A stretch of 57,580 nucleotides of DNA from Vicinamibacteria bacterium (lineage in GTDB: Bacteria; Acidobacteriota; Vicinamibacteria; Vicinamibacterales; UBA8438). A model generated the notes under the pieces. That model had not been told where the DNA came from and ran no database searches. It was given only the letters and a program-made list of their open reading frames with translations. The position numbers and the translations under genes were made by a program. This document shows positions 28,980 through 51,899 of this stretch, piece by piece. The number at the start of each line of letters is the position of its first letter. Positions within the stretch are counted from its first letter, which is position 1. Where the stretch lies: positions 1 to 57,580 of the forward strand of contig JAJEEA010000236.1 in NCBI GenBank assembly GCA_022821235.1. Reading direction: 5' to 3'.

Positions 28980-31142
28980 ATGTGCGTGACATCGCGGCTC
29001 GGTCTCCCGGGAGCCCTGCTCCTGGCTGGTGGCGTGCTCGTGCTGACCGGCGCCGGCGCGGCAGCGTCCGACGAGGACATCAGCGGCGTCGTGCGGAGCG
29101 CCGCCGGCGGCGAGGCCGGGGTCTGGGTGATCGCCGAGACCGGCGACCTCGAGACCACCTATCGCAAGATCGTCGTCACCGGCGACGACGGGCGGTTCCT
29201 CGTACCGGACCTGCCGGACGCCGGCTACGAGCTGTGGGTGCGGGGCTACGGCCTCGTCGACTCGGAGAAGCACGCGGCGCGACCCGGCGACGAGGTGACC
29301 CTGACGGTGACCGCGGCGGCGACGCCGCAGGAGGCCGCCCGCATCTACCCCGCCAACTACTGGTACTCGCTGCTCGAGGTGCCCGCCGCCAGCGAGTTCC
29401 CCGGCACCGGCCCCGACGGCAACGGCATCGGCCGCGCCATGCGGCACCAGGCCGAGTGGGTCGACCGGCTGAAGGACGGCTGCCAGCTCTGCCACCAGAT
29501 GGGCAACGTGGCCACCCGCGAGATGCCCGTGCTCGACCTCGACGACTTCGACTCGACCCTCGACGCGTGGGACCACCGGGTGCAGGTCGGCCGCAGCGGC
29601 CCGAGCATGAACGCGGGGCTGAACCGCATGGGCCGCGAGCGCGCCCTCGGCCTCTTCGCCGACTGGACCGACCGCATCGCGGCCGGCGAGGTGCCGCCGG
29701 CACCCCCGCGCCCGCAGGGCCGGGAGCGCAACCTGGTGCTGACGATGTGGGGCTGGGGCGACCCCATCGCGATGGTCCACGACGAGATCGCCACCGACAA
29801 GCGCAACCCCCACCTGTACGCCAACGGCCCCGTGTACGGCGTCGGGGGAGCCGGGCTCGTCATCACCGACCCGGTGACCCACCGCTCGGAGCGGCTGGAC
29901 ATGACCACCCGCGTGCCCATGGAGCAGCGCGGCGACTCCTACGCCGGCACCAGGGCCCGCATACCGTCGCCGTACTGGGGCGACGAACGCTCGACGGCGC
30001 GGGGCTACAGCGCCCACAACCCGATGCTCGACGACAAGGGCCGGCTCTGGATCACCCAGCTCATCCGCCCGTCGGACAACCCCGACTGGTGCAAGGCGGG
30101 CTCCGACCATCCGTCGGCGCGGCACTTCCCCATCGACCGCAGCCAGCGGCAGCTCTCGTACTACGACGTCGAGAGCGGCGAGTTCGTGCACGTCGACACC
30201 TGCTACATGACCCACCACCTGCAGTTCGCCGAGGACGACGACGACACCCTCTGGCTGAGCGGGTCGACCGACGTCGTCGGCTGGCTCAACACCCGGCTCT
30301 ACGACGAGACCGGCGACGAGCAGGCGGCCCAAGGCTGGTGCCCGACCATCGTCGACACCAGCGGCGACGGCGTCATCGGCGCCTACACCGAGCCCGGCGA
30401 GCCGCTCGACCCCGCGAAGGACATGCGCATCGACGGGTTCGCCTACGGCATCATCCCCAACCCCGTCGACGGCTCGATCTGGATCGCGCGGCGCCTGCCC
30501 GTGCCGGGCAACATCGTGCGGCTCGAGCTCGGCGACAACCCGCCCGAGACGTGCATCGCCGAGGTCTACGAGCCGCCGTTCGAGAACCCCGACGTCGACC
30601 CCAGCCAGTGGGGCCACGGCGGCCGCGGCATCGACGTCGACCGCAACGGCGTCCTCTGGACCGCGCTCGGCGGCAGCGGGCACCTCGCCAGCTTCGACCG
30701 CAGCAAGTGCAGCGTGCTGAACGGCCCCACCGCCACCGGGCAGCACTGCCCCGAGGGGTGGACGCTGTACGCGACCCCCGGCCCGCAGATGAAGGGGGTC
30801 GAGGCGGCGGGCAGCGCCGATTTCCACTACTACAACTGGGTCGACCAGTTCGACACGCTGGGGCTGGGCGCGAACGTGCCCATCGCGAACGGCACCAGCT
30901 CGGACGCCCTGCTCGCGCTGCTGCCCGACACCGGCGAGTGGGTCACCCTGCGCGTGCCCTATCCCCTCGGCTTCTACACGCGGGGGCTCGACGGCCGCAT
31001 CGACGACGCCGACGCGGGCTGGAAGGGCCGCGGCGTCTGGGCCAGCTACGACTCGGTGACGAACTGGCACAACGAGGGCGGCAAGGGGATGACGAGCGAG
31101 ATCGTGCGCTTCCAGGTGCGCCCGCACCCGCTGGCGGAATAG
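28980..31142 (+). CDS. Secreted protein with carboxypeptidase-regulatory-like N-domain, one CxxCH motif and propeller-like C-terminus
   Basis: AAGGAGG RBS; signal peptide; ISGVVR..GEAGVWVIAET..VVTGDDGRF; GCQLCHQ; RVPYPLGFYTRGLDGRIDD. Confidence 0.85.
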   Translation: MCVTSRLGLPGALLLAGGVLVLTGAGAAASDEDISGVVRSAAGGEAGVWVIAETGDLETTYRKIVVTGDDGRFLVPDLPDAGYELWVRGYGLVDSEKHAARPGDEVTLTVTAAATPQEAARIYPANYWYSLLEVPAASEFPGTGPDGNGIGRAMRHQAEWVDRLKDGCQLCHQMGNVATREMPVLDLDDFDSTLDAWDHRVQVGRSGPSMNAGLNRMGRERALGLFADWTDRIAAGEVPPAPPRPQGRERNLVLTMWGWGDPIAMVHDEIATDKRNPHLYANGPVYGVGGAGLVITDPVTHRSERLDMTTRVPMEQRGDSYAGTRARIPSPYWGDERSTARGYSAHNPMLDDKGRLWITQLIRPSDNPDWCKAGSDHPSARHFPIDRSQRQLSYYDVESGEFVHVDTCYMTHHLQFAEDDDDTLWLSGSTDVVGWLNTRLYDETGDEQAAQGWCPTIVDTSGDGVIGAYTEPGEPLDPAKDMRIDGFAYGIIPNPVDGSIWIARRLPVPGNIVRLELGDNPPETCIAEVYEPPFENPDVDPSQWGHGGRGIDVDRNGVLWTALGGSGHLASFDRSKCSVLNGPTATGQHCPEGWTLYATPGPQMKGVEAAGSADFHYYNWVDQFDTLGLGANVPIANGTSSDALLALLPDTGEWVTLRVPYPLGFYTRGLDGRIDDADAGWKGRGVWASYDSVTNWHNEGGKGMTSEIVRFQVRPHPLAE

Positions 31143-31337
31143 GACCGCGGCACGAACGTGGCGATGCCGCACCGCCGCGCCGCGCGGCATCGCTCGCCTC
31201 GGTAGGACGGGACGCGGCGCGTCCAGCGGAGTCGCACGCGGGGAGGATGTCGTTCACGCGGGAGGGCGGAGCGCCGTCACCGCCCGGGGCGCTCCAACCC
31301 GCGCCCGAAGGATCCGTCTGTTTCGAGGAGAGCAACC

Positions 31338-32441
31338 ATGCCCACGTGCCCGCACCGGTCAATGTCCATGACACGCCGTGGTGCCCTGCGCCGGCTCGGC
31401 GCCGCCGGCATCGGAATCGTCGCCGCGCCGGGCCTGGCGGCCGGGCTGCCGGCGGCGGCGCGACGCCAGGCCGGCGGCGTGACGTTCCCCGAGGGCGCGA
31501 TCATCCGCACCGTCCTCCGCGACATCTCGCCCGACGAGCTCGCGGGGGGGTCGACGCTGTTCCACGAGCACCTGTCCATCAACGATCCGCGTCCGCCCTG
31601 GCTCCCGGCCCTCGAGAACCCGCAGCCGCCGTTCACGGCCGACCTCGACCTGATGGCCGACGAGGTGAACGCGACCGCCCAGGAGGGGGTGGCGTGCATC
31701 GTCAACGGCGGCACCCGCGACCTCGGCCAGAACTTCGACCGGCTGGTCGAGCTGGCCCGGCGCGTCGACCTGCACATCGTCATGGCCGGCGGGTTGTGGA
31801 CACAGGCGCGCTACCCGCCCGAGATCGCGCAACAGACCGAGGAGGAGGTCGCCGCCGACTTCCAGCGCGACGCCGCGGCCGAGCGTTGGGGGGCCCTCGG
31901 CGAGATCGGCTCGTCGATGACCATGCACCCCGACGAGCGCAAGGTGCTGCGGGCGAGCTGCCTCGTCCACCTGCGCACGGGGCTGCCGCTCTTCACGCAC
32001 ACCCCGCACGCGGGATGCCCCTCGTGCGCGCGCGAGCAGCTCGACATCATCGAGGACATGGGCGTCGACCCGCGGCTCGTGTGCATCGGGCACCTCGCCG
32101 ACATCGTCGACGACCCGCAGGCCGTGCTGCACCGCGAGCTGGCGAGCCGCGGCGCGTTCCTCGGCTTCGACACCGTCGGCCACCAGATCACGCAGGGCGA
32201 CGCCGAGAAGGTGCGGATGATCGTGTCGTGCATCGACGCCGGCTACGAGGACCACGTGCTGCTGTCGGCCGACTTCGCGCGCGAGGCCGAGCTGAAGGCG
32301 AAGGGTGGCGCCGGCTACTCGTCGGTGACGGCCATCTTCCTGCCGAAGCTGCGCTACGCGGGCGTACCCGAGGAGACCATCCGCAAGATCATGGTCGACA
32401 ACCCCCGGCGGTTCCTCGCGTTCGTGCCGAAGAACGCATAG
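31338..32441 (+). CDS. Phosphotriesterase-related amidohydrolase, Tat-exported
   Basis: TRRGALRRL Tat motif; TLFHEHL, GEIG, FTHT, IGHL, LSAD, NPRRFL. Confidence 0.88.
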   Translation: MPTCPHRSMSMTRRGALRRLGAAGIGIVAAPGLAAGLPAAARRQAGGVTFPEGAIIRTVLRDISPDELAGGSTLFHEHLSINDPRPPWLPALENPQPPFTADLDLMADEVNATAQEGVACIVNGGTRDLGQNFDRLVELARRVDLHIVMAGGLWTQARYPPEIAQQTEEEVAADFQRDAAAERWGALGEIGSSMTMHPDERKVLRASCLVHLRTGLPLFTHTPHAGCPSCAREQLDIIEDMGVDPRLVCIGHLADIVDDPQAVLHRELASRGAFLGFDTVGHQITQGDAEKVRMIVSCIDAGYEDHVLLSADFAREAELKAKGGAGYSSVTAIFLPKLRYAGVPEETIRKIMVDNPRRFLAFVPKNA

Positions 32442-32452
32442 TGGAGAAGACC

Positions 32453-34264
32453 ATGCCGAACCGAAATGCCACGCTCGCGGTCCTGCTCGCAGCCTTCGCG
32501 GCCCTGACCCTCCCGCCCCTCGCGGGCGCGCAGCAGGGCACGACCGTCACCCGCGAGGCGCGGCCGTTCACGCCGGTCACCGACGAGATGCTGCGGAGCC
32601 CCGACCCCGGCGACTGGCTGATGACCCACCGGACCTACGACTTCCAGGCCTACAGCCCGCTCGACCAGATAAACCGCGACAACGTCGACCAGCTTCAGGT
32701 GGCGTGGATGCGGGCGATGGACGAGGGGCCGCAGCAGACGCAACCGCTCGTCTACGACGGCGTGATGTACCTCGCCCACAACGACGACCACATCCAGGCC
32801 CTCGACGCCACCACCGGCGACATGCTCTGGGACTACCGCCGCGAGACGCCGGCCGACCTGCGCCAGTACGTCACCCTCGGCAACCGCACCCGGAACCTCG
32901 CCATCTACGGCAACCACATCTACCACCTGACCGCCGACGCGCACCTCCTCGCCCTCGACGCGAGCACCGGCGAGGTCGCCTTCGACACCGAGATGGCCGA
33001 CTACCGCGACGGCATCACCCACTCGACCGGCGCGATGATCATCGACGGCCGGGTCCTCGCCGGCCGCACCTGCAGCCCCCGCAGCCGCGAGGCGCGCTGC
33101 TTCCTCTCCGCCCACGACTCCAACGACGGCAGCGAGCTGTGGCGCGTCTACACCGCGGCCGGCTCGGACGACCCCGGCGGCGAGAGCTGGGGCGACCTGC
33201 CCGTGTCCGAGCGCGTCCACGTGTCGCCGTGGGGCGCCCCCGGCAGCTACGACCCCGAGCTCGGGCTCATCTACTGGGGCATCGCCGTCCCCCTGCCCTA
33301 CCCGCGCATCGTGCGCCGCGGCACGTGGGACGTGGGCGACAGCACCCCGTGCGAGCTGTACTCCAACTCGACGGTGGCCCTCTCCGTCGGCGACGGCGCC
33401 ATGGAGTGGTACTACCAGCACCTGCCCTGCGACGACTGGGACCAGGACTTCGTGCAGGAGCGCACCCTCATCGACACCGTCATCGACCCCGACCCCGAGG
33501 CGGCGATGTGGGTCAACCCCAACCTCGCGGGCACCGCCGAGGAGCGCCAGGTCGTGGTCACCATGGGCGAGCCGGGCGGCCTCTTCGTCCTCGACCGCGC
33601 CACCGGCGAGTTCCTGTGGGGGCACCCCGTGCCCTACGACAGCACCGAGCGCTTCGTCATCAGCGACATCGACCCCGCGACCGGCCAGGTCTTCATCAAC
33701 ATGGACCTCGTGGCCCGCGAGCTCGGCCAGCAGTTCATCATCTGCGGCCACAACGTCAAGGGCTGGTGGTCGTGGTCGTACAGCCCCCTGACCGGGATGC
33801 TCTACGTCCCCATCAACCGCTCGTGCCTGAACCAGACCACCAACGAGCGCTCCGTTTCGGGCACCAGCCCCCGCTTCACCCAGCCCGAGCCCGGCTTCGA
33901 GGTCGACGGCCACCTCACCGAGGTGCGCGCCATCGACATCTCCACCGGCCGCGAGGCGTGGCGCTACACCCAGCGCGCCCCCAACGCCGGCTCCACCCTC
34001 GCCACCGCCGGCAACGTCGTCTTCCACGGCGACCTCAACCGCCGCTACCGCGCCTTCGACGCCGAGACCGGCGACGTCCTGTGGGAGACCATCCTCGGCA
34101 GCCAGATCACCGGCTTCCCCGTCACCTACACCGCGGGCGGCCGGCAGTACCTGACGGTGCCGGTGGGCGGCGCGTCGATCTTCCAGTTGAGCAACTACGC
34201 CTCCGAGCTCGAGGCGCCCATGGGCAGCAACATGATCGTCACCTTCGCGCTGCCGGAGGAGTGA
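32453..34264 (+). CDS. PQQ-dependent dehydrogenase-family beta-propeller protein
   Basis: ATG 32453 with GGAG RBS; YSPLDQINRDNV, PLVYDGVMY, WYYQHLPCDDWDQD, GGRQY...FALP. Confidence 0.9.
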   Translation: MPNRNATLAVLLAAFAALTLPPLAGAQQGTTVTREARPFTPVTDEMLRSPDPGDWLMTHRTYDFQAYSPLDQINRDNVDQLQVAWMRAMDEGPQQTQPLVYDGVMYLAHNDDHIQALDATTGDMLWDYRRETPADLRQYVTLGNRTRNLAIYGNHIYHLTADAHLLALDASTGEVAFDTEMADYRDGITHSTGAMIIDGRVLAGRTCSPRSREARCFLSAHDSNDGSELWRVYTAAGSDDPGGESWGDLPVSERVHVSPWGAPGSYDPELGLIYWGIAVPLPYPRIVRRGTWDVGDSTPCELYSNSTVALSVGDGAMEWYYQHLPCDDWDQDFVQERTLIDTVIDPDPEAAMWVNPNLAGTAEERQVVVTMGEPGGLFVLDRATGEFLWGHPVPYDSTERFVISDIDPATGQVFINMDLVARELGQQFIICGHNVKGWWSWSYSPLTGMLYVPINRSCLNQTTNERSVSGTSPRFTQPEPGFEVDGHLTEVRAIDISTGREAWRYTQRAPNAGSTLATAGNVVFHGDLNRRYRAFDAETGDVLWETILGSQITGFPVTYTAGGRQYLTVPVGGASIFQLSNYASELEAPMGSNMIVTFALPEE

Positions 34265-34340
34265 ATGCCGCGGCCGCGGGCTGACAGGCACCGCCGAGTC
34301 TCTGCCAGTCCGCGGCGGCCGACCGCCGAGACGATACGCC

Positions 34341-34544
34341 ATGCCCCAAGAGCCGCCGAACAATCGCCGCATCGACTGGACGGGTGTTCAGCCCGACGAC
34401 TCACCCATCGAGCCTCTCGATGGCCGAACCTTCCTGCTCCGCCTGCGGCGGCTCGAAGCGCACGCGCGCGACCTGACGATCCTGCGCCGGGCCCTCATGC
34501 AACGCCAAGCTCATGACCGACGGGTTTCTCCAGATTCTGAATGA
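34341..34544 (+). CDS. Small hypothetical protein overlapping the nucleotidyltransferase gene
   Basis: 67 aa ORF in a TA-like two-gene arrangement; no recognisable motif. Confidence 0.5.
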   Translation: MPQEPPNNRRIDWTGVQPDDSPIEPLDGRTFLLRLRRLEAHARDLTILRRALMQRQAHDRRVSPDSE

Positions 34545-35000
34545 GCTCCACGACCACGGCGTCGATTTCGTGATCGTCGGCGGCGTCGCCGTCGGGCTCC
34601 ACGGCGGCTCGCGCGTCACCTTCGATCTCCACATCGTTCCCAGCCTGGCACCCGATTCGTGGCGGGCCGCCGTCGACCTGCTCTGGTCTCTCGGGGCGCG
34701 TCCACGGATTCCCGAATCGCTCGACCGGATTCGCGACGTGGAGCAGGTCCGCCGATGGCGGTCCGAGAAGAACATGCTGGCCCTGAACTTCCGCACACCG
34801 GACGGCGCCACCGAGGTCGACCCTGCTGGTCGCCGAGAGCGACGGCTTCCAGCCACTCCGCCGCCGCGCGGTCGACGTCGCCGTGGATGAGCGCACGTTT
34901 TCGGTGGCGTCGATCGACGACCTGATCGAGATGAAGCAGCGTAGCGGCAGACCGCAGGACCGGCTGGACATCACGGACTTGCGAAACATCCAGACGCGCC
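34513..35000 (+). pseudogene. Nucleotidyltransferase (DUF6036-like), frameshifted
   Basis: FVIVGGVAVGLHGGSRVTFDLHI; an extra C in the CCC at 34821-34823 shifts the frame, which resumes LLVAESDGF...VASIDDLIEMKQRSGRPQDRLDI. Confidence 0.75.
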
Positions 35001-35035
35001 TTGACCGCCCCGTCACGACCTCGACACCAGCGGCC

Positions 35036-35926
35036 GTGAATCAACGCAGCCGTCGCTCAAGTCGACCAAGCGCCACCCGAGACGAGCTGCCGAAGATCGA
35101 AGGCAGCGTCCTTGGAATCGACATCGGCTGGTCCCAAACGTCTCGCACGAGCGCTGTCTGCCGCCTGTCCTGGGATGACCGTCACGTCCTGTGGAAGACC
35201 GACCGATTCCGTGCCACGACCCCCGAACGGCACACAATCAGCCGCGTGGCAGGCGAGAACGCCCTTCGCGCGGTCGCGATCGACGGTCCTCTTCGCCAGA
35301 GTTTCGACTCGATTGGTCGCTATCGCAGCGCCGAGCGCCTGCTCAGCCGTGGAGTCCTTCGGAAGCGCATTGGCAAGCCCGGTCAGTCCAGCTCTCCCAA
35401 CGGGCGGAAACTGAACACGGAGGCGAACAAGACCGCCGAGTTCGTGAGACGCCGTTGCCGCGTAAGCAGGGCGCGGCATGCGGTACGGATCGACGAGTTC
35501 GCCATCGTAGAGGCCTTTCCGACGACGTTCCTCGGGGCCATGATCCAAGATCCGCCGCCCCCGCACCGCGGCGAGAGGTCGGACGCGTACTTCGTGCACT
35601 TGGCCGAGCGTCGGTCCTTCGATCAGCTTGCGCAGAGATTGCTCAGCGGCCGGACCTGGATCCGCGACCCAGGTGACCTCCGCAACCACGACGACAGAGC
35701 AGCCTTCGTCTGCGCCCTCACGGCGCTCTCGGTCGCAGCGGGCGAGTTCACGGCCGTTGGCGACGACCGCGACGGCTGGATCATCCTGCCACCGCAATGG
35801 GCGTTCGCTGACTGGGCGTGGACCGCGGCCAATGAGACGGCGCGCCACGAACAACGCGAACAACGGTCGGAGTCCCGGGGGAGACTGCTGTCGTTTCCCG
35901 AGAATCAGCCACCGTCCGTTCTCTGA
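35036..35926 (+). CDS. DUF429-family RNase H-like predicted nuclease (start uncertain)
   Basis: VLGIDIGWS, VAIDGPL, YRSAERLL, IVEAFP, HDDRAAFVCALTA, GWIILP; in frame with the upstream NTase C-terminus with no stop between them. Confidence 0.75.
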   Translation: MNQRSRRSSRPSATRDELPKIEGSVLGIDIGWSQTSRTSAVCRLSWDDRHVLWKTDRFRATTPERHTISRVAGENALRAVAIDGPLRQSFDSIGRYRSAERLLSRGVLRKRIGKPGQSSSPNGRKLNTEANKTAEFVRRRCRVSRARHAVRIDEFAIVEAFPTTFLGAMIQDPPPPHRGERSDAYFVHLAERRSFDQLAQRLLSGRTWIRDPGDLRNHDDRAAFVCALTALSVAAGEFTAVGDDRDGWIILPPQWAFADWAWTAANETARHEQREQRSESRGRLLSFPENQPPSVL

Positions 35927-36035
35927 TTCCCCACGAGCCCGAGCCGGCGGACCCTCCTGAGTGGACGGCCAACGAATCCGCGTGTGCAGGGTCCACCCAG
36001 AGGGCACCCTTCAACCGGGAGGCGCATCCTTGCAC

Positions 36036-37286
36036 TCAGAACAGATCGCTGAGCTCGTTCTCGCCCCCAGAGCCATCGACCCTCGGTTCAGCCGCACGGG
36101 CCGATGAGTCGTCCACGCCCCGCTGTATGGTCATCTGTTTCCGGCGCTCCAGATCGCGGAACCGATCCATGAACAGGGCGTCTTCCCCGTCGGTGGTACT
36201 GACGTACAGCCACCGCGTCGCTCGCGTGATGCCGACGAACAGCCAGCGTTCGAGCCGGTCGGAATCGGTCTTCCCCAGCAACTTGCGATTCAAGCGCGGC
36301 ATCAGAACCGTGTCGAAAGTCAAGCCCTTGGAGCTCGGGTATGGCATGAGCTTGGGCAAGGGTGTGCCAAAGTCGACGGGCGGGACCGGGTCGTCCTTCC
36401 TGCGCGCCGACTCGTTGATCTCCACCTCGAGCCCGGCTTCGCTCAGCGCGCGAGCGTAGCTGCGGGTGCGGTACTTGTCCGGAAACAGGATGGCGATGCG
36501 TTCGTTCCGATCGATCCGGGTGCGGACCACTTCAATCAAGTGCGAGCGTTCGTCCTCGGCGTCCCTCGCGAGGTACAGCAGGGGCAACTGACGCTCACCC
36601 CTTTCGACCGGCGGATTCTGCTCGATGAATCGCCTCCGTTCCACGTCGTCGCGGACGAACGAAGCGCCTGCCTGCACGATGTACGGCGAGCAACGGTACG
36701 CGTCGAGCAGCGCGAGGTTGCGCCGACGCAGCCCGAGCGCCCTCGCGACGCCCGTCTCGTCGGCGTCCCGGTCGTAGAGCTTCTGCTTCGGGTCCATGAA
36801 GACCGTCACGTGCTGCGCAACGGCCGCCAGCGTCTCGAAGTCGCGTCGGTCCAGATCCTGGCCCTCGTCAACCATCACGAAGTCGAACAGACGCTCGGAG
36901 GTCTTCAAGTGGCGCGTCTTCTCCCACACCGCCTGTCGGATCGCCTCCCAGTCACGGCTGCGGCCACTCCAGGGCATTCGCTTGTCGACCTGATCCCTGT
37001 AGTACTCGCCGCACCAGGCGTCGAAGGTCACTACGCAGTCCTCCGGAAGTGCAAGGTCGCGTAGCGCTGCCCGGATGTAGGCCTTGAGCGCGTTCGTGTA
37101 GACGAACAGGCGGCAACGGTCCGGCGGAATCCCGTACTGGTCGAGCAGATGGCGCGCCCGATGCAGCAGAACGATGGTCTTGCCGGAGCCGGGAGAGCCC
37201 AGCACCAACCGATGCTGCTTTGGATTCGCTTCGACCGCCCGGCTCTGTGCAACGGTCAGTTCACTGCGGGGAACGAGCCAACTCAC
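36036..37286 (-). CDS. Short superfamily 1 (UvrD-like) helicase/ATPase
   Basis: GSPGSGKT, VDEGQD, DPKQKLY, YRCS, SSKGLTFD, LFVGITRA; GTGA overlap with the Hsp70 stop. Confidence 0.9.
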   Translation of the reverse strand: MSWLVPRSELTVAQSRAVEANPKQHRLVLGSPGSGKTIVLLHRARHLLDQYGIPPDRCRLFVYTNALKAYIRAALRDLALPEDCVVTFDAWCGEYYRDQVDKRMPWSGRSRDWEAIRQAVWEKTRHLKTSERLFDFVMVDEGQDLDRRDFETLAAVAQHVTVFMDPKQKLYDRDADETGVARALGLRRRNLALLDAYRCSPYIVQAGASFVRDDVERRRFIEQNPPVERGERQLPLLYLARDAEDERSHLIEVVRTRIDRNERIAILFPDKYRTRSYARALSEAGLEVEINESARRKDDPVPPVDFGTPLPKLMPYPSSKGLTFDTVLMPRLNRKLLGKTDSDRLERWLFVGITRATRWLYVSTTDGEDALFMDRFRDLERRKQMTIQRGVDDSSARAAEPRVDGSGGENELSDLF

Positions 37287-39703
37287 CGCGGCCTCCTTAT
37301 GATCTCGTTCCGGGTCTCCGGCAGCACGCCGTCACCCGTCGTCGGTTCCTGGGCCCGCCCCCGCCGCGTGCGCTCCTCGTCGGCGGCCTGTTCCCGTCGG
37401 CTGTCCCGAGCCAGCCGGGCACCGAAGCGGTACCAGTGCAGTTCGAAGTCATCCAGAGTCGCCACAGGATCGAACGCGTCGAACGCCTGCTCCAGGAGGG
37501 CATCGCATTCAATGGTCGACTTCTCCAGTTTCGCGACCACCCGCGCCTTCAGAATGAGGCTCGGTGGATTCGACTCGCGTGCGATCGCCGCCTCGACGGT
37601 CTCCATCGCCGCCTTCAATCGGCCCTGACGCTCCTGCGCCAGGGCGAGGTTGAACAGCGGGCCGTTCCACGCCGACGGAATTGCCGCCGCCTCGCGGTAG
37701 AACTTCTCCTCCCGCTCGTGGTCGCCCAGTCTGCCGGCGATGATGCCCATACGGTTGAGAATCCCGGCGTTCGGCGATGTCCTGATCAGACTGCTCAGCA
37801 GACTCAGGGCCCGCTCGCAGTGCCCCAGCTCCGCTTCCAGCTCGGCGATCCTCTCCACCGTCTTGCGCTGCTCCGCCTTCGACACGACTCCCGTGCGCAT
37901 CCTTTCCTGCAGCTCGAGTATCTCGTCGCGCTTGGCATTCGGGTTCACGACGCTGGTGAGAGGATTCTCAACGGTGAGTTGGAACTCCTCCTCGGCGTCG
38001 TCGCCGCCGTCCGGGCGTGCAAGACGCAGGTGCAGTACCTGGTTGACGTCCATCCGATAGCGCAGCCGCAGTGGATCGCCCTTGGCGACACCCCTGCGAA
38101 TCGTCCAGATCCCGGACATCAGGACACGGTCGTCGGCGTTCGACAATGCAACCCGCAGGTTCACGTCGTCCACGAGACTCGTCTCGGGAGCCACCAGCCG
38201 GTCGTTTTCGGCCCAGTCTCCGTCCGGGGGATACGGAAGCTCGGTGCCGTCACCGATCAACTCGACAGGTCCCGTCGCGGTCTGGATGTTGATGCTGTCC
38301 CCAGTGACCGGCCGAACGAGTCCCTGCCCGCGAACGGCCAACGAGAACGCCTGCCATGCGGCTCCGTGCGCTACCGCGGTCTGCGTACGCTCCGAGTCGT
38401 CGAAAGACAGGGTTCGGGCCTCGGAGAAGAAGTCGTCGACAGCCTCGACAATCTGCGGGATCAGGGCGCTCCCGCCGACCAGCAGGCAGAAATCGACGTC
38501 GCCCGACTCCAGGTTGGCCCGGCCGAGCGCATCCTGAAGCGGCGCGAACACCGAGCACGTCATGAGGTAGTCGGTCTCGCGGGGGTAGAGCAGATCGCGG
38601 TCCAGAAACGGCTCGACCACCCTGTGGAACTCGACCGCGCTCAGCGTCGGCGATTGGAGGCGCAAGGCCGTTCCGTCGCGCAGGGTGCAAGGATAGACGC
38701 CCGGATTCTTCTGGCCGAGCTTGGTGCGCTCTTCCTCGTAGCGGCCGAACTTCTTGAGACGGGCGATCTCCCGGCAGAGCCCGATCTTCAAGGATTCCGC
38801 ACAACCGAGCAGCGCCGGAATCACTCGCTCGAACTTGGCGCGGTAGTCCAGATCGTGGGGCTGCAAGCCGTTCTGCTCGATGAGTTGCGGAATCAGGACC
38901 CCCGTGACTATCGCGCGATCGATGTCGCCGCCACCGAGGCGGTGGTAGCGGGAGACCGAGCGCGGCGCCACCTCGATACCGGCCGACGCGCCGGGTCTCG
39001 GCGGGCGAAGCTCGAAGACGGCGACGTCACACGTTCCCCCGCCGAAGTCGAACACCACGAGACGGCGGCGCTCGGACAGGCCCGCGAACGTCTCCGTGCC
39101 GTGCGTGAACACGTAGTCGATGAAGGCAGCGATGGGCTCATCCAGAAGGGCGCCGGGCGCCAGCTCAATACCGGCGAGCCCCGCAGCCTCGAGCGTGTCG
39201 TGCCGTTGAGACGCCTGAAACGAAGCCGGCACCGTCACCACCGTCGCGGCTTCGGGCTGCCCGTCGTCGCCCGACGCGGAGTCCATGAGGAACTTCAGCA
39301 CATGCCCCGCGAGCTCCTTGGCGGATCGAAACCCGGCCGGGGCCTTGTGATAGGTCCGGCGAACGCCGATGTCGTTCTTGCAGTCCCAGAAGATGTTGCG
39401 GTACTGCTCCAGACCGAGATCTCCGAGGCGTGCGCGCAGGTCCTTGGCTCCGGCACCCACGTAGACCTGCCCGTCGTGGAGGGCCAGAACCGACGGGACG
39501 AGCGTGTGGAACTGTGGTCCCTGTCGTGTGGGCTGCTCGACGTCGAGACAGCGCACTTCGGGCGTACCGCCGCTCTCCAGCGCGACGACAATCTCGGCCA
39601 CCGTCGAATTGGTCGTTCCCAGGTCGATGCCGATCACCCGCAGGGGTCGCCGTGACGCCGGAACCTGGCTGTCGGCCGCGGTGGCAAGTGCAGTGAAGCT
39701 CAT
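37283..39703 (-). CDS. Hsp70-family ATPase with C-terminal TPR-like repeats
   Basis: GIDLGTTNS, VTVPASF, VFDFGGGTCDV, LGGGDID, LLVGGS, AVAHGAA; C-terminal ILNRMGIIAGRLGD..FYREA and LFNLALAQERQGRL..A TPR-like helices. Confidence 0.88.
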   Translation of the reverse strand: MSFTALATAADSQVPASRRPLRVIGIDLGTTNSTVAEIVVALESGGTPEVRCLDVEQPTRQGPQFHTLVPSVLALHDGQVYVGAGAKDLRARLGDLGLEQYRNIFWDCKNDIGVRRTYHKAPAGFRSAKELAGHVLKFLMDSASGDDGQPEAATVVTVPASFQASQRHDTLEAAGLAGIELAPGALLDEPIAAFIDYVFTHGTETFAGLSERRRLVVFDFGGGTCDVAVFELRPPRPGASAGIEVAPRSVSRYHRLGGGDIDRAIVTGVLIPQLIEQNGLQPHDLDYRAKFERVIPALLGCAESLKIGLCREIARLKKFGRYEEERTKLGQKNPGVYPCTLRDGTALRLQSPTLSAVEFHRVVEPFLDRDLLYPRETDYLMTCSVFAPLQDALGRANLESGDVDFCLLVGGSALIPQIVEAVDDFFSEARTLSFDDSERTQTAVAHGAAWQAFSLAVRGQGLVRPVTGDSINIQTATGPVELIGDGTELPYPPDGDWAENDRLVAPETSLVDDVNLRVALSNADDRVLMSGIWTIRRGVAKGDPLRLRYRMDVNQVLHLRLARPDGGDDAEEEFQLTVENPLTSVVNPNAKRDEILELQERMRTGVVSKAEQRKTVERIAELEAELGHCERALSLLSSLIRTSPNAGILNRMGIIAGRLGDHEREEKFYREAAAIPSAWNGPLFNLALAQERQGRLKAAMETVEAAIARESNPPSLILKARVVAKLEKSTIECDALLEQAFDAFDPVATLDDFELHWYRFGARLARDSRREQAADEERTRRGRAQEPTTGDGVLPETRNEIIRRPR

Positions 39704-39882
39704 GAATTCCGTTCCTCGCAGTCCCCGCCGGCGCTCCCGGTGACACCCCACGCCGCCGAGCATCATCACGGCGCTGGCAAATCGCTATTCCGCCGGCGAC
39801 ATCACTCCATGCGGCTGGCTGCCACCGTGGACGCAGTACCCGCGGCGCGCGCCAGCAACGCGGTCTCGACAACCGCAGAGAC

Positions 39883-42800
39883 TCAGCCCTCTGGCTCCAC
39901 TCCCATCCAGCAGACCAACTCGACGTCCTCCTGCGAGATCGGCGGCAGAGGGGAAGCCGGTTCGACTGGTTCGAGCCCAGTCTCCAGGATTCTGTCGATC
40001 AGGAAGCGGGCCAAGTCCTTTCCGCGGTGCTCGTCGGAATCGAACCATCCTCGGAGCATGATCTCCTCCCGTCGCGGCCAAGGCGACTCCAGCACGTCGA
40101 GCGCTCGAGTGATTCGGTCGTCTGGAACGTCCACCGGGGAGTTCGTACGGATGAACTCGGCGACGCGGTGGTTGAGCGGCCGGACCTTCGGCTGCAGATT
40201 CGCCGGGTCAGTCTGGCGGACCCAATCGTCCAGGATGTCCTGCTGGGCCACCGCCCAGAAGTCGTACACCCCGTCCTGAAGAACGGCCGACAGCCACGGC
40301 TCGGTTTCCTCCGTGCATTCGATCAGGCGCAGGCACGTACCGATCTCGCGAACGACGGCACCCTCGTCGGTCCGCGGTCGCCAGTCGTCGTCCGCAGCCA
40401 CGAAACGCAGGTACGTCCGTTCGAGATCGGTCTCGTGCCCAATCACCGCGCAGAAGAAGACGCCACGGCGGGCACCCTTGACCATGCCGGTCCCCACCTT
40501 CCACGGGAGACCGGCGATGTGCTCGCCGTTGCCTGCCAGCGCCTTTCGGAGCGTTTGCCGGTACTCTTCCCCGGTCTGGGCCGCGGCGGCCGTGCCGCCG
40601 CGCTGGTAGAGAGCCGGATCCTCGCGGAGCAGCTTCTCGATTTCGTGACGCGTCTCGGTGAACACCTGCTTGCCGTGGGAGGAGCCCTCGATGGGCGCGA
40701 CGACGCCGACGCTGGCCGCCGCCAGGGCGAGCTTGTCGAGGATGCGCTGTTCGAGGTTCAGAAGCTGGTCGAGGCGGTCGACCGGGAAGATCGTCCGCAG
40801 GAACACACGCTTGTGGGGGCTCCCGATGCGGTCGATGCGGCCGTGCCGCTGGACCAGACGCATCGGATTCCACGGCACGTCGAAGTTGATGATGTGCCGG
40901 CACTGTTGCAGGTTGACGCCTTCGGCCAACACGTCGGTGGAGATCAGGAGGTCGTAGCGGTCGGTCGCCTGACCTTCCGGCGCCTCCATGGACACCGGTG
41001 CAAAGCCTTGAACTGCCTCGTTCCGGGACACGTCGGAGAGGTCGTCCTGACCGCTCACGGCAGCAATTCGGTTCGCATAGGCCGCGATGTCGGCACGGCC
41101 CTCCAGTTCCGTCGCGAGGAAATCGCGGACCCAGCGAACCGTATCGGCGAAGAACGAGAAGACGAGCACCTTCCGCCGCTGGGCCTCGTCGACGCTGTCG
41201 GTCGCTTCACGCGTCGCCTGCTGGACAATCTCCGCCAGTGCTTCGATCAAGGCCGCCAGCTTGGGATCCCGGTCGGGCGTGATGGAGGCCGCGTCCTCCG
41301 ACAGCATCCGAAGCGTGTCTCCGTCCCGACGCACCGCTGCACGCAAGCCCTCCACGTCGTAGGCCGAGGCATCTCTGAGGTTCGAGCTCGTCGTGAGCAG
41401 GGTTTCGAAGACCGCATCGTCGTCGCCCGACAGCTCCTGCATGAACGCCGTGGTCGCCACGTGGCCGCGATCCAGCGCGTCGAGGAAGACATCGTGCTCG
41501 CGGACCATCTTCTCCGTCGTGCGCCTGAATGCGAAGGCCGACGACTCGAAGCGCTTCAGCAAGCCCGATCGCAGGAGCCCCACAGTCGCCCGTGCTCGCG
41601 CGACCTCCTCCTCGTCCCCGCCGCCCCGCAGATAGGCGTCCGGCGTGTACCTCGCAAACTCCACGGCCTCGTCGCCGTCCGGATCGAGCGCGGCCTCGAG
41701 CCGATCGAAGAAGCCAGGCAGCGACTCGTCCAGGTCGTAGCGGACACTGATGGCCCTCGGGTGCGGAAACACGATGGGCCGCGCGATGCCGTCCGGCCCC
41801 CTGATGGTGTCGTTCGCGTAGTGCTTCCGCACGAACTCCCGCGTCCGCTTCACCGTCGTGGCGTCGATGACCGGGTACAGCACGTCCGGGCTCAGGCTGG
41901 AGGGGTCCTCCCGCATGGCCTCTTCGAAACGGGCGCGGAGCGAGAGAATGCCCCGTTCGGCGAGATGAGCGTCCTGGCGCAGGAAGAAGCGGATCAGATG
42001 GTAGAGGTCCCACAGCGAGTTGTTGACCGGCGTCGCGGTCAACAGCAGCAGATCCCGCCGCCGGCCGAACATCAGCGCCCGCAGGGCCGCCGCCCGCGTC
42101 GGGGCATCGGGATTCCGGTAGTTGTGGGCCTCGTCGACGATCACGAGCTGATACTCGTCGAGCGGACGTTGCAGGTACTGCTGCCGCGCCTCGGGCCGCT
42201 GCGCGTCCCGAAGCTGCCTGTCGCTCGCCAGCTGCTCGAACGACAGACACTCGACGAACAATTGATAGGTGCTCAGGAATTTCTTCCAGGTGGTGTCCCG
42301 CAGCGCCGCCGGGCAGATCAGCAGGGCCCGCTGTCGTCGCTCCCGGTAGATCTGGAGGATCTCGCCCGCGACGAAGGTCTTCCCCAGGCCGACCTCGTCG
42401 GCAACGATGCATCCCCCCGTCTCCCGAATCAGCCTGAGCGCGCGGGCCACTCCGTGCTTCTGAAAGCTGGTGAGCGGCAGGTTGTCGTCGACCGCCTCGT
42501 CGTCGGCTACCTCCTTGCCATACAGGCGCCAGAGCACGTGGATGAAGATCTCCCAGGGCCGCCGAAGCCGAAAGACCACCTCGAAGACGTCCGCCAAGTC
42601 GTAGGGCTCGGCCTGCTCCCAGAGCTCGTCGAACCACGCCCGCGCCCGCTCGACGATGGGCCGGTCGTAGCGGCCGAGGTCGAGCTCCAGGTTATCGCTC
42701 AGGCCCGCCGCCGTCAGGTTCGCGGAACCCGCGATGACGCCCGCCGGCGCACCGAAGGCATCGCCCGCGGATGTCAGGATGTACGCCTTGGCGTGCAGGA

Positions 42801-43239
42801 ACGCCCGCTCGTAGCGCCGCACCTCCATGTTGCCGCCGCGAAGCGCCGCTATGAGCGTACGCAGCGCCGTCGCGCTCGTCCGAGTGTACGGCAGCCGGTC
42901 GCGCTCCCGACGCAGCCCGTCGTCCATTCGACGCAATCGCCCGCCAAGTCGCCGCCGTTCGAATGCCCCAGCCGGCTCGCCAAGCGCCCGCCGGCTCGCA
43001 AGCTCATCCGACGGGCGGTCCGCCCCCAGCAGCAGTCGGACCTCCGGTACCCGTGAAAGCGCGCCGGCAATCTGAGCGAAGCCGCTCGGGCTGAAGAACG
43101 CCGTGGCAATGCGGACGCGGTCGGGCGGCGCGGTACCCTCGCCCGTCCGATCCGACTGAGGGGCGGCCAGCACCGTGCGCAGCGCTCGCGCCAGTGTATT
43201 CCCGTCACGGTTGTCGATGAACGCGGGTCCGTCACTCAC
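39883..43239 (-). CDS. PLD-nuclease + SNF2-family helicase fusion
   Basis: RIATAFF, FLHAKAY...GSANLT; ADEVGLGKT, DEAH, LTATPVNN, EGVNLQ, PWNPMRLVQRHGRIDR; GTGA overlap with the DUF4411 stop. Confidence 0.9.
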   Translation of the reverse strand: MSDGPAFIDNRDGNTLARALRTVLAAPQSDRTGEGTAPPDRVRIATAFFSPSGFAQIAGALSRVPEVRLLLGADRPSDELASRRALGEPAGAFERRRLGGRLRRMDDGLRRERDRLPYTRTSATALRTLIAALRGGNMEVRRYERAFLHAKAYILTSAGDAFGAPAGVIAGSANLTAAGLSDNLELDLGRYDRPIVERARAWFDELWEQAEPYDLADVFEVVFRLRRPWEIFIHVLWRLYGKEVADDEAVDDNLPLTSFQKHGVARALRLIRETGGCIVADEVGLGKTFVAGEILQIYRERRQRALLICPAALRDTTWKKFLSTYQLFVECLSFEQLASDRQLRDAQRPEARQQYLQRPLDEYQLVIVDEAHNYRNPDAPTRAAALRALMFGRRRDLLLLTATPVNNSLWDLYHLIRFFLRQDAHLAERGILSLRARFEEAMREDPSSLSPDVLYPVIDATTVKRTREFVRKHYANDTIRGPDGIARPIVFPHPRAISVRYDLDESLPGFFDRLEAALDPDGDEAVEFARYTPDAYLRGGGDEEEVARARATVGLLRSGLLKRFESSAFAFRRTTEKMVREHDVFLDALDRGHVATTAFMQELSGDDDAVFETLLTTSSNLRDASAYDVEGLRAAVRRDGDTLRMLSEDAASITPDRDPKLAALIEALAEIVQQATREATDSVDEAQRRKVLVFSFFADTVRWVRDFLATELEGRADIAAYANRIAAVSGQDDLSDVSRNEAVQGFAPVSMEAPEGQATDRYDLLISTDVLAEGVNLQQCRHIINFDVPWNPMRLVQRHGRIDRIGSPHKRVFLRTIFPVDRLDQLLNLEQRILDKLALAAASVGVVAPIEGSSHGKQVFTETRHEIEKLLREDPALYQRGGTAAAAQTGEEYRQTLRKALAGNGEHIAGLPWKVGTGMVKGARRGVFFCAVIGHETDLERTYLRFVAADDDWRPRTDEGAVVREIGTCLRLIECTEETEPWLSAVLQDGVYDFWAVAQQDILDDWVRQTDPANLQPKVRPLNHRVAEFIRTNSPVDVPDDRITRALDVLESPWPRREEIMLRGWFDSDEHRGKDLARFLIDRILETGLEPVEPASPLPPISQEDVELVCWMGVEPEG

Positions 43240-43730
43240 GAGGGCGCTCCGAGCACGAACCGCGCGTGCTCCCGCCGCAGCATTTCGAACGGCGTCACGC
43301 ACTTGATTCCGATACCGATGCAGACGTTGGGAATCTTGATTCTCCGTGTCGAGGACGAGGCAACCTCGTGCGTGACGACGTCGTACCCGCGCGCGAGGGC
43401 ATGCGCGACCAAGTAGTAGTCGGCAACTTGAAGGAACGTGCTGACCGCAGCCGGCTCGTACTGCTGGCTGGTCACCCAGCGGCTGACGGTGCCGAGCGCG
43501 GCCAACACATCAGGCGTCGGTCGGAGGAAGAAGTCACCACCGCGCTCCGCCGCCCACGTCGCCAGCTCGTCGTCACCCGCCGCGAGCTCATCACCCACCT
43601 TCTCGATGCTGACCGCCCGGCCGTCCGCAGCGGCCGCCACCAGCCAGTCCCAGAATGCCGGGCAGAAGTCGAATCCGTAGTGCAGGTTCTTAGCGCGGAT
43701 GAACACGTCCGCGTCGAGCAGATACGCCAT
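43236..43730 (-). CDS. DUF4411-family PIN-domain protein
   Basis: YLLDADVFIRAKNLHYGFDFCPAFWDWL...ADYYLVAHA...VVTHE...KIPNVC. Confidence 0.88.
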   Translation of the reverse strand: MAYLLDADVFIRAKNLHYGFDFCPAFWDWLVAAAADGRAVSIEKVGDELAAGDDELATWAAERGGDFFLRPTPDVLAALGTVSRWVTSQQYEPAAVSTFLQVADYYLVAHALARGYDVVTHEVASSSTRRIKIPNVCIGIGIKCVTPFEMLRREHARFVLGAPS

Positions 43731-43734
43731 CAGG

Positions 43735-44883
43735 TCAGCGCCCCGCACTCAGGGTCTCTGCAAATTCCCGGAACGTCGACATCTTGCGGATCCCGAGTAG
43801 CCGCAGAGACTCGGAGAACGACGTTCGGCCCTCCAGCGTGCTCGTCACCACCGCGTGTCCGAACCGGCGCCCTACACGAACCCTGAGCGTAGGATGGAAG
43901 CTGCCGCCACTGGGCGCCGGGCGGGCGTTCAAGCGTCCAACCTCGTCCCGGTACGCGACGCGGAACTCCTCGTAGCCGAGCCTACCGGTGTCCCTGAGCC
44001 GGCGCAGCACGACGAGGGTGCTCACCTTGAAGCGCCGGGCCAGCCGCTGCGTTTCCGAGAACACGTCCGCGGACGCGTCGTGTGCCGCTCGGACCACTTG
44101 ACCCGGGACGAGGAGCTCCGCCGCCACGCGGTTGCACCAGCCTTCCACCCGATGCCCCGGCGTCGGACGTACCCCGACGTCCGACAAGGCTGACTCACCG
44201 AGCCACAGATGTGCGAGCTCGTGCGCCAGCGTGAACATCTGCGCCGCCTTCGTGTCCGCGCCGTTCACGAACACCACAGGGGCCAGCGGGTCCGCGAGCG
44301 CGAAGCCGCGAAACTCCTCCGGATCGAGCCGCCGTCTGGTGCTGTTCCCAACTATGCCGCTAATCATGACGAGCACGCCGAGCGCTTCGGCCTGCTCCCC
44401 AAACCGGCGCAGCGCGGCGCTCCACGTGGGCAGCGTGTGGCGCTCCTCGAGGTCGAAGCCCAGGGCCCGGCGCATGTGCGTCGCCGTCGCCTCGATGTCG
44501 CTCGCGACGCCAGCGGACCCCACGAACCGCCGCGGGCCTTCCCCCTCCACGCGCGCGAACTCGCGGTACCAGTCCTGGCGCTGCTGGCAGAGATAGACGG
44601 TATCGAGCATCTCGGGGCTCGGGCGCCCGATCGCGGAATCTCCCACGGTTCGGAAATCGGGAATCGGGACTTCTTCGATCGGCGCCTCGGGCAGAAAAAA
44701 GTAGCCCACCGGCGCCCGGCTGGTCCTCGCGAAGGCCTCTAGCTGCTTTAGCGTAGGTCGCGCCGTTCCCCGCTCCCACTCGAGGTACTTCGGAAAGAGG
44801 CGCACCAGCACGGCCAAGTCCAGCCGGGCGCGTTCGCGCGCCCAGCGGAACAGTTCCGGTTTCACGTCCACGCGCGGCGTCAT
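43735..44883 (-). CDS. XRE-HTH + ImmA/IrrE-family metallopeptidase
   Basis: N-terminal HTH (WERGTARPTLKQL), FRGFAL, FTLAHELAH (HExxH), EGWCNRVAAELLVP; ATGA overlap with the MTase stop. Confidence 0.9.
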   Translation of the reverse strand: MTPRVDVKPELFRWARERARLDLAVLVRLFPKYLEWERGTARPTLKQLEAFARTSRAPVGYFFLPEAPIEEVPIPDFRTVGDSAIGRPSPEMLDTVYLCQQRQDWYREFARVEGEGPRRFVGSAGVASDIEATATHMRRALGFDLEERHTLPTWSAALRRFGEQAEALGVLVMISGIVGNSTRRRLDPEEFRGFALADPLAPVVFVNGADTKAAQMFTLAHELAHLWLGESALSDVGVRPTPGHRVEGWCNRVAAELLVPGQVVRAAHDASADVFSETQRLARRFKVSTLVVLRRLRDTGRLGYEEFRVAYRDEVGRLNARPAPSGGSFHPTLRVRVGRRFGHAVVTSTLEGRTSFSESLRLLGIRKMSTFREFAETLSAGR

Positions 44884-49490: not shown

Positions 49491-49501
49491 TGGCGTGAAA
49501 T

Positions 49502-51761: not shown

Positions 51762-51899
51762 GGGTTGTCTCCTCTCGCTTCCCAGGGAAGGACAACGACG
51801 GAAGATTCCTGACCGCGCGTCAGACGCAGAAAAGCCGAAGAAACGGGCTGCGCGCGAAGTCGGCAAACCTTGTTCCGATCACCGTCCCAAGGGCCGCCG

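Follow-up and report, generated by a model that had tools for sequence, protein, structure and literature searches.

The gene pair at the locus and across genomes

We analysed a 57,580-nucleotide stretch of Vicinamibacteria bacterium DNA (contig JAJEEA010000236.1, assembly GCA_022821235.1; hereafter the window), in which two adjoining minus-strand genes encode an Hsp70 protein with tetratricopeptide repeats (TPR) at the position of its lid (Hsp70-TPR; P0001) and a small UvrD-like helicase of superfamily 1 (SF1; P0002). That these genes form a co-inherited, coupled two-gene module was strongly supported by their conservation across related loci. As a candidate reading, with a probability of about 0.5, we regard the pair as a single module that moves horizontally and whose most likely role is defence against phages or mobile elements.

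The Hsp70-TPR gene (806 amino acids (aa)) occupied positions 37283–39703, with its ATG at 39703 and a TGA stop at 37283–37285, and the helicase gene (416 aa) positions 36036–37286, with a GTG start at 37286 and its stop at 36036–36038, which gave the pair a size of 3.7 kb. Direct reading of the sequence showed that the helicase start and the Hsp70-TPR stop overlap in the tetranucleotide GTGA (37283–37286, minus strand), and that AAGGAGG at 37292–37298, the helicase ribosome-binding site, precedes the GTG by 6 nt and so lies within the end of the first gene. Upstream of the pair, a 179-bp spacer (39704–39882) carried GAGGAA at 39712–39717, 8 nt before the ATG. An alternative, longer Hsp70-TPR open reading frame (ORF) starting from a GTG at 39769 would encode 828 aa; the N termini of homologues aligned with the ATG at 39703 instead. 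An earlier inspection of the letters alone (the sequence-only reading) had reported these coordinates and lengths, the GTGA overlap and the 179-bp gap followed by the pair's own ribosome-binding site, all of which proved correct. A scan of positions 35500–40100 returned no promoter-like and three terminator-like sites (2.0 expected), and the spacer itself held neither a sigma-70-like promoter nor a terminator, by a consensus that is uninformative for the host organism.

A homologue search with P0001 gave 1980 database matches, the best 120 of which measured 484–1103 aa (about 110 of them 780–830 aa) and were 47–97% identical to it over the aligned part. The family was spread sporadically, with 338 confirmed Hsp70-TPR stretches in a scan of one genome for each of 185,579 species; the best 80 stretches, fetched with their flanks, made up together with the window a set of 81 loci. 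Twelve of the 80 fetched loci ended less than 500 bp after the Hsp70-TPR gene. A helicase homologue came next on the same strand in 66 of the remaining 68, in agreement with the pair conservation that the sequence-only reading had proposed to score, and only loci L075 and L078 lacked it despite downstream DNA. Among the 56 loci (window included) in which both ORFs were called by script, the two genes overlapped by 4 nt in 32 and by 1 nt in 4, and were separated by 0–20 nt in 13 and by 21–300 nt in 5; the other 2 pairs were far apart solely through an interrupted Hsp70-TPR gene. On the basis of this spacing, the two genes are predicted to be translationally coupled. The ORFs were called by a greedy longest-ORF procedure, which recovered the Hsp70-TPR gene in 75 of the 81 loci and went wrong in about six of high GC content.

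Pairwise divergences of Hsp70-TPR and helicase correlated over 49 loci (Mantel r 0.62, with none of 2000 permutations as high) and therefore indicated a shared history, not necessarily a contact. Among 119 matches of the helicase search, 37 shared the size of the longest contig with an Hsp70-TPR match, which is a proxy only for co-location. Clustering of 907 ORFs from the 81 loci detected no further widely conserved neighbour, other ORF families being present in at most 11 loci. The proposal of a stand-alone two-gene module was borne out by the 66/68 pairing and by this lack of another conserved neighbour, but it was qualified by 12 of the 81 loci in which the pair is associated with a PLD-SNF2 or methylase gene (see below). 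At L033, a second, longer UvrD-like ORF (613 aa, 8873–10714) stood directly after the pair's helicase.

The pair was distributed like an accessory cassette that is often transferred. A FastTree phylogeny of Hsp70-TPR (49 rows, 41 with a phylum label, 15 phyla) contained 23 phylum-label changes, where at least 14 are needed and shuffled labels gave 27.7 on average, and several well-supported sister pairs joined different phyla, with the caution that labels of metagenome-assembled genomes can be wrong. Damaged copies were found for both genes: an insertion sequence (IS) element lay inside the Hsp70-TPR gene of L013 and that of L080 was split, and the helicase gene was interrupted by about 1.7 kb in L001 and truncated in L008 and L024. 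P0002 had no match in 72,556 plasmid or 50,697 phage records, in which P0001 found distant Hsp70-family, DnaK or HscA matches only.

Architecture of the two proteins and their natural variants

The AlphaFold2 model of P0001, built with 78 homologues, had a predicted local distance difference test score (pLDDT) of 86.4 and a predicted template modelling score (pTM) of 0.80. According to this model and an alignment with DnaK, residues ~21–458 (positions 38330–39643, minus strand) form a nucleotide-binding ATPase domain of the actin fold, which was the only part recognised by the Pfam HSP70 family (99 bits). A beta-sandwich, substrate-binding-like domain was placed at residues ~463–579 (37967–38317, minus strand) by the modelled strands and by Foldseek alignments with DnaK, so that P0001 retains this domain by the model. 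Eleven modelled helices at residues ~590–782 (37358–37936, minus strand) compose a helical TPR solenoid in the lid position. The Pfam families TPR_16, TPR_14, TPR_8 and TPR_12 scored at or just under their cut-offs in P0001, and the profile of the Hsp70-TPR family matched an engineered TPR protein in 11 stretches with an E value of 3.5e-61, in line with the TPR-like repeats that the sequence-only reading had placed where the lid would be. The short linker between the beta domain and the TPR (residues 580–589) was strongly conserved. In the C-terminal tail (residues 783–806; 37286–37357, minus strand), which consisted of a low-confidence linker followed by a short segment with a pLDDT of ~80, L794 and P795 were at least 90% conserved in the 78 homologues and the remainder was variable. 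The top Foldseek matches of the P0001 model were full-length DnaK proteins, aligned over 600–790 columns that covered the ATPase and beta substrate-binding domains.

In the alignment of P0001 with DnaK of G. kaustophilus, the phosphate-1, phosphate-2 and adenosine motifs were identical or near-identical, and residues D27, G29, T30, T31, K109, E189, D219, G221–T224, D226, G410 and G411 were invariant in the 78 homologues. Because the nucleotide-binding motifs are so close to those of DnaK and invariant in the family, the ATPase looks active, and the description of an 806-aa Hsp70 with intact ATPase motifs was upheld. Orthology to DnaK, HscA or HscC was considered and rejected: P0001 scored 106 bits with the NCBIfam DnaK model NF001413 (cut-off 648), 101 bits with the HscA model NF003520 (cut-off 620) and 100 bits with TIGR02350 (cut-off 822). 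With scores of about 100 bits against cut-offs of 620–820, it is not an orthologue of a named chaperone.

Pfam assigned P0002 to UvrD-helicase, UvrD_C and AAA_19 only and identified no nuclease domain in it. The best Foldseek matches of its AlphaFold2 model (pLDDT 88.8) were PcrA, UvrD and Rep (TMq 0.59–0.69, TMt 0.42–0.47), proteins of 620–720 aa of which the model spanned less than half. P0002 is thus modelled as a bare two-RecA-domain SF1 core, its 416 aa leaving little room for the accessory domains of UvrD. Among 53 helicase homologues, Q14, G35, K36, T37, D140 and R355 were invariant, and E141, G142, Q143, D144, D165, Q168, R198 and K320–D325 were at least 90% conserved; we take these residues to represent the SF1 motifs Q, I, II, III, IV, V and VI. 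The conserved SF1 residues and the purely UvrD-type Pfam content confirmed the prediction of a 416-aa SF1 helicase without a nuclease domain. Like P0001, P0002 retains every residue that ATP binding and hydrolysis require. The first ten residues were nearly invariant too (Trp3, Leu4, Leu10). P0002 did not qualify as a full-length UvrD or PcrA, scoring 47 bits with the NCBIfam PcrA model (cut-off 911) and 34 bits with that for UvrD (cut-off 1144). The helicase profile also matched HelD and helicase IV chains, and the NCBIfam HelD and HelR models did so weakly.

A search with the helicase profile collected 654 representatives (50% identity) at E ≤ 1e-30, and two natural fusions of an Hsp70 ATPase domain with a helicase were present among the 150 of them that were listed, P0284 (842 aa) and P0313 (876 aa). 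Their N-terminal halves were 38% identical to residues 3–456 (P0284, E 3e-75) and 20–464 (P0313, E 5e-69) of P0001, the helicase made up the C-terminal part, and Pfam reported HSP70 and UvrD domains in both. The two fusions shared 44% identity and therefore represent an evolving lineage, not one assembly error. Both lacked the beta domain and the TPR, and their phosphate motifs had decayed, while the helicase motifs were kept. Apart from P0284 itself, a word-indexed search with its junction found just two ordinary UvrD-like proteins. In P0284, four residues separated the final helix of the ATPase domain from the Trp-Phe-Val-Pro segment of the helicase, at the position where P0001 has its interdomain linker. 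Because the fusions put the W-L/F-V-P segment at this site, the helicase N terminus probably contacts the Hsp70 ATPase domain. A complex prediction for residues 455–806 of Hsp70-TPR (ATPase domain excluded) with the whole helicase, both with alignments, gave a score of 0.01 (mark 0.32), which speaks neither for nor against a contact.

The two loci lacking a helicase offered other genes in its place. At L078, a 188-aa HD_4 protein (12394–12960) replaced the helicase and overlapped the Hsp70-TPR stop by 4 nt, and at L075 the replacement was a 245-aa protein of no known family (12581–13318). A gene for an SLFN_AlbA_2 protein and a type III restriction-modification pair lay downstream of the latter. 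In a further variant, P0027, a Ser/Thr kinase domain preceded a complete Hsp70-TPR that was 67% identical to P0001; this variant is represented by one sequence, on a contig of 6153 bp. Since an HD protein can fill the helicase slot and a kinase can be added in front, and since the fusions keep the helicase, lose the beta domain and the TPR and let the ATPase motifs decay, we infer that regulation, as a switch, falls to Hsp70-TPR and that the helicase acts as effector. The existence of helicase, HD phosphohydrolase and fused-kinase variants further suggests that the effector slot is exchangeable.

The opposite assignment of roles, which we consider unlikely, would have the helicase sense phage DNA ends or replication intermediates and Hsp70-TPR act as the effector that clamps, unfolds or sequesters an essential protein. 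The UvrD-like GajB of the Gabija system is thought to recognise such ends or intermediates, and GajB models matched P0002 weakly. Reversed roles would also fit the intact ATPase sites of both proteins, a helicase without an effector-like domain, the complete beta substrate-binding domain and the best superposition of the P0001 model on a truncated DnaK in the 'stimulating' state. However, L078 exchanged the helicase for the HD protein and kept Hsp70-TPR, and P0284 and P0313 retained the helicase motifs through the loss of the beta domain and TPR and the decay of the ATPase motifs, which argues that the helicase is the indispensable working part.

Distant relatives of the pair resided on plasmids pSMS3-3 of Antarctobacter (L081, 5449–10880) and pPP6 of Persicobacter (L082, 5935–11335) as three-gene sets, in the order of an Hsp70 family protein, a UvrD-like ATPase of 387–388 aa and a third gene (456/596 aa) without a Pfam family; they are annotated merely as 'Hsp70 family protein', 'AAA family ATPase' and 'hypothetical protein'. 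The Hsp70 part was only 27–30% identical to P0001. The ATPase of pSMS3-3 was 23% identical to P0002 (E 2e-13) and shared with it the N-terminal Trp-hydrophobic-Val-Pro segment, and the Hsp70 of this plasmid had a weak TPR match as well as a weak match to the PADLOC model PDC-M61B (E 2e-6), which was absent for P0001. The pSMS3-3 set adjoins IS elements and a RelE/ParE module.

Such carriers raise the alternative that the pair works not in host immunity but for a mobile element itself, in maintenance, anti-restriction or exclusion on behalf of an integrative element or plasmid. Integrase, transposase or primase genes adjoined the copies in L018, L019, L024, L053 and L077, ParA-like genes lay upstream in L030 and L046, and distant relatives of the pair were found on the two plasmids by IS elements and the RelE/ParE module. 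Nevertheless, the plasmid and phage records contained no close homologue and most loci had no mobility genes among the nearest ORFs, which makes this alternative highly improbable.

Genomic neighbourhoods of the pair

The surroundings were surveyed with Pfam over the two closest ORFs on either side that measured 120 aa or more, 233 ORFs from 73 loci in all; L034, L039, L058, L059, L071, L072 and L079 had no flanking ORFs in this count. DnaJ and GrpE domains were found in none of the 233, though partners may be encoded elsewhere in the genomes, and the J-domain partners that the sequence-only reading had named as evidence against its proposal were thus not seen beside the homologues. Its statement that the window holds no dnaJ or grpE also stood for the 36 window ORFs scanned for domains (5+7+24, short of an exhaustive six-frame scan). 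The module can do without a neighbouring J-protein or GrpE gene.

On a strict reading, clear restriction-modification or defence enzymes were among the four or fewer nearest ORFs in 23 of the 73 loci, the 'defence' class being the author's judgement from Pfam names. They included Type_ISP_C/Eco57I/MmeI/TaqI_C methylases, PLD- or ResIII/SNF2 helicases, EcoRV with Dam, HamA with a helicase, GmrSD, DndE, DUF1156 with DUF499, AbiEi, NERD, REase-ARP, SIR2 and HEPN. The count rose to 34 of 73 with toxin-antitoxin and softer cases, the 11 additional loci having PIN, Fic, SocA, DUF3800, SLFN_AlbA_2, WYL, YgjP or HNH domains. Defence genes make up roughly a few percent of a genome, so both fractions look enriched, as an estimate made without a matched background. 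The suggestion of a defence context was therefore supported qualitatively, at 23 of 73 loci, but not at about half of them, where neighbours were housekeeping or unannotated genes only.

These latter neighbourhoods would suit a specialised housekeeping or stress module, a chaperone-helicase pair with no part in immunity and employed in replication restart, in RNA polymerase recycling (HelD-like) or in ribonucleoprotein remodelling, as would the matches of the helicase profile to HelD and helicase IV chains and the fair conservation of the TPR and beta domains. We judge this very unlikely, given the sporadic distribution, the phylum-scrambled tree, the IS-broken or truncated copies, the frequent restriction or defence neighbours and integrases, the location of the window copy in a low-GC island, and the NCBIfam scores for DnaK (106 vs 648) and HscA (101 vs 620).

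One neighbour recurred. A fusion of a PLD (HKD) nuclease-like domain with an SNF2 helicase (PLD-SNF2) and/or a Type ISP-like methylase was located within 10 kb of the pair in 12 of the 81 loci (L004, L008, L010, L011, L018, L019, L024, L027, L031, L035, L037 and the window), co-directionally in 11; by clustering, the PLD-SNF2 family alone was within 10 kb in 11 of 81. A Type ISP-like methylase of ~1100–1500 aa stood beside the pair in L004, L008, L010, L011, L019, L024 and L027. PLD-SNF2 was directly upstream of the pair in the window, L010, L031 and L035; L010 had the pair between PLD-SNF2 and the methylase. In the Hsp70-TPR tree, the associated loci belonged to several clades. PLD-SNF2 and the methylase resemble a Type ISP-like restriction system split over two genes, and PLD-SNF2, although a repeated companion of the pair, does not belong to its core.

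This association invites the reading, unlikely in our estimate, that the pair is non-autonomous and an accessory of a restriction-like system of PLD-SNF2 and a Type ISP/IIG-like methyltransferase, in which its task might be to bind RNA or DNA, a role suggested for the Hsp70-like CnuD of CoCoNuT, or to remodel stalled restriction complexes. The 12 loci with PLD-SNF2 and/or a Type_ISP_C/Eco57I methylase within 10 kb, 11 of them co-directional and from several tree clades, are consistent with it, as are similar 'superoperons' of Hsp70-containing CoCoNuTs and restriction systems described in PMC11090510. Yet 69 of the 81 loci had no such gene within 10 kb and many pairs were among housekeeping genes, the gene order relative to the restriction genes varied, and in the window the pair was set off from PLD-SNF2 by the 179-bp spacer with its own ribosome-binding site. 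Moreover, the PLD-SNF2 proteins were only 25–28% identical to that of the window (P0003), whereas Hsp70-TPR proteins of the same loci were 44–65% identical to P0001.

In the window, which has ~70% G+C, the pair lay in a stretch of lower content (~34–50 kb; 65–68% vs 70–74% in the flanks), an island at 34300–49700 between two genes for PQQ-dependent dehydrogenases (28982–34264, plus strand; 49767–51866, minus strand). No integrase was found at its edges, and a tRNA scan of the window gave none and therefore pointed to no tRNA-type integration site. Beside the pair, the island contained at least four defence-type genes. PLD-SNF2 (P0003, 1139 aa; 39883–43302, minus strand) had the Pfam domains PLDc_2, SNF2-rel_dom and Helicase_C and matched the PADLOC model C3a139 'HKD+Snf2' with an E value of 2e-50, and DrmD models more weakly. 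A type IIG-like restriction-modification methyltransferase (P0005, 1351 aa; 44880–48935, minus strand) matched PADLOC REase_MTase_IIG over residues 33–1348 with 1017 bits as well as Pfam Eco57I. Between them, a gene for an ImmA/IrrE (M78) peptidase (43735–44946, minus strand; Peptidase_M78, E 6e-17) overlapped the start of a DUF4411 gene (43236–43748, minus strand; E 7e-54), and these two look like a regulator/toxin-like two-gene module of their own. A 347-aa ORF on the plus strand (34883–35926) matched the PADLOC single-gene defence candidate PDC-S44 (E 3.9e-11) and no Pfam family.

DISARM, which consists of a core of the DrmA helicase and DrmB (DUF1998) with DrmC or DrmD and a methylase, was considered for these neighbours and rejected, P0003 scoring 164 bits vs the NCBIfam DrmD cut-off of 610; neither DUF1998 nor DrmA was present among the scanned window ORFs. 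Outside the island, a 450-aa ORF (13577–14926, minus strand) combined DUF4062 with HATPase_c_4, a domain also seen in the SLFN_AlbA_2 proteins that adjoin the pair in L068 and L075.

Relation to known systems and a possible mechanism

The nearest described thing to Hsp70-TPR is CnuD of type III CoCoNuT, which is accompanied by the McrB-like GTPase CnuB (NxD motif) and the McrC homologue CnuC (PMC11090510). Like P0001, CnuD joins an Hsp70-like ATPase and a beta domain to helical repeats, and its predicted defence operons contain neither DnaJ nor GrpE and often adjoin restriction systems (PMC11090510). The two differ in their partner, an McrB-type GTPase with an McrC homologue there and an SF1 helicase here, in their repeats, which are HEAT-like in CnuD and TPR in P0001, and in their nucleotide-binding motifs, since CnuD is reported to have degenerate Walker-A-like motifs, with RNA binding and poor ATP hydrolysis predicted (PMC11090510), whereas those of P0001 are invariant. 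No McrB or McrC (DUF2357) domain was detected in the scanned flanking or window ORFs. HSP70 also takes part in GTPase-centred conflict systems, which contain GrpE and DnaJ-fused proteins, unlike the Hsp70-TPR loci (Kaur et al., PMC7159879).

An HSP70-like NTPase can replace the STAND NTPase in three-part immune architectures (10.64898/2026.10.19.760177). STAND/Avs sensors, which carry C-terminal TPR or other repeats, resemble the pair in that an NTPase switch and superstructure-forming repeats control an effector (10.64898/2026.10.19.760177), and the kinase-Hsp70-TPR fusion P0027 presents the full three-part layout of STAND-type architectures. In contrast to STAND/Avs, the ATPase of P0001 has an actin/Hsp70 and not an AAA+-like fold, the effector is usually a separate, coupled protein, and the repeats are not hypervariable.

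Gabija consists of the UvrD-like GajB helicase and GajA, an OLD-family ATPase-nuclease. GajB and the PADLOC candidate system C3a187 'NERD+UvrD' share the SF1 UvrD-like ATPase core with P0002, for which C3a187 was the best match in PADLOC-DB v2.0.0 (5027 models, E ≤ 0.01; residues 13–377, E 9e-21). That match covered the helicase half of C3a187 only (positions 200–554), which indicated that the NERD domain is absent from P0002. The GajB models, of 500–650 positions, matched P0002 partly and weakly (E 1e-14 at best), and the pair had no conserved GajA/OLD/Toprim nuclease neighbour. P0001 matched none of the 5027 PADLOC models.

DnaK and HscA work with a J-domain protein and DnaK also with GrpE, partners that are usually encoded nearby. 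P0001 shares the fold, the nucleotide-binding motifs and the beta substrate-binding domain with DnaK, HscA and HscC, but its lid is replaced by the TPR, no gene for a J-protein or GrpE is nearby in the scanned loci, and its distribution is patchy and phylum-scrambled.

Text searches of the literature, which extended to main texts and left supplements, supplementary candidate lists and subscription-only papers outside, yielded no description of a pair of Hsp70-TPR and a UvrD-like protein. Together with the lack of a PADLOC model for P0001, this agrees, within those searchable texts, with the sequence-only reading in calling the system undescribed. The pair is probably an undescribed immune module that applies the logic of an NTPase switch, repeats and an effector to an Hsp70 fold with an SF1 motor.

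In the Hsp70 cycle, ligand binding changes ATP hydrolysis and linker docking, and our analogy is based on this behaviour. Hsp70-TPR could operate as an ATP-driven conformational switch, in a role akin to that of STAND NTPases with repeat sensors. A trigger, such as a phage protein or peptide and possibly a nucleic acid, would bind the beta domain and/or the TPR solenoid and alter both the nucleotide state of the ATPase domain and the way in which its interdomain linker docks. If the N-terminal segment of the helicase sits at the linker-docking site, the switch could keep the motor in place or let it go, and its altered state would release or load the bound SF1 protein. As the effector, the motor might move along phage DNA or RNA, strip off proteins, unwind intermediates of the phage or consume ATP futilely, and would in this way block replication or arrest the infected cell. 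Tentatively, and with some reservation, the pair may stand for a new class of prokaryotic immune module in which the Hsp70 cycle is itself the pathogen sensor, the beta clamp and the TPR capture a phage polypeptide and thereby, through nucleotide state and linker docking of the ATPase domain, release a minimal SF1 motor otherwise held by its conserved, linker-like N-terminal segment, and the effector slot is exchangeable.

Several observations weigh against a role in defence. The TPR and beta domains were not hypervariable (mean top-residue frequency 0.58, compared with 0.68 in the ATPase domain), which is easier to reconcile with a conserved partner or ligand than with an arms race against diverse phage proteins. 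Neither a nuclease nor another evident killing domain is present in the helicase, and on sequenced plasmids and phages the pair family was represented by distant relatives only. The 23/73 count of defence neighbours is the author's reading of Pfam names without a matched genomic background, and about half of the loci, for example L002, L005, L007, L013, L038, L052, L056 and L064, had housekeeping or unannotated neighbours only. In addition, the related loci were all from metagenome bins, and some of their taxonomic labels may be wrong.

To our knowledge, no role of Hsp70 as a bacterial immune switch has been shown experimentally. Earlier links of Hsp70 to conflict systems, CnuD in CoCoNuTs (PMC11090510) and the GTPase-centred systems (PMC7159879), are computational. 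If the pair is truly a defence system, the STAND-like logic of switch, repeats and effector would gain a new sensor fold, and the pair would show an Hsp70 running without a J-protein and a nuclease-free helicase as an effector. The compact, self-contained pair with both ATPase sites intact is directly clonable and testable, and the fusions and effector swaps give hints about the contact site of the two proteins and about which of them is the working part.

Other combinations of Hsp70 with repeats were noted. On plasmid pNCT2_2 of Priestia megaterium (L083, 5986–9487), a gene for a 583-aa Hsp70 family protein was followed by one for a 576-aa HEAT-repeat protein, which resembles a split form of the Hsp70-plus-repeats theme. 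The ESM Atlas contained several bacterial Hsp70+TPR clusters of 51–141 members and, as a lead only, two that were 94–100% eukaryotic (commonest Chlorophyta and Bacillariophyta), with proteins of 715–728 aa and feature scores of 0.90–0.91.

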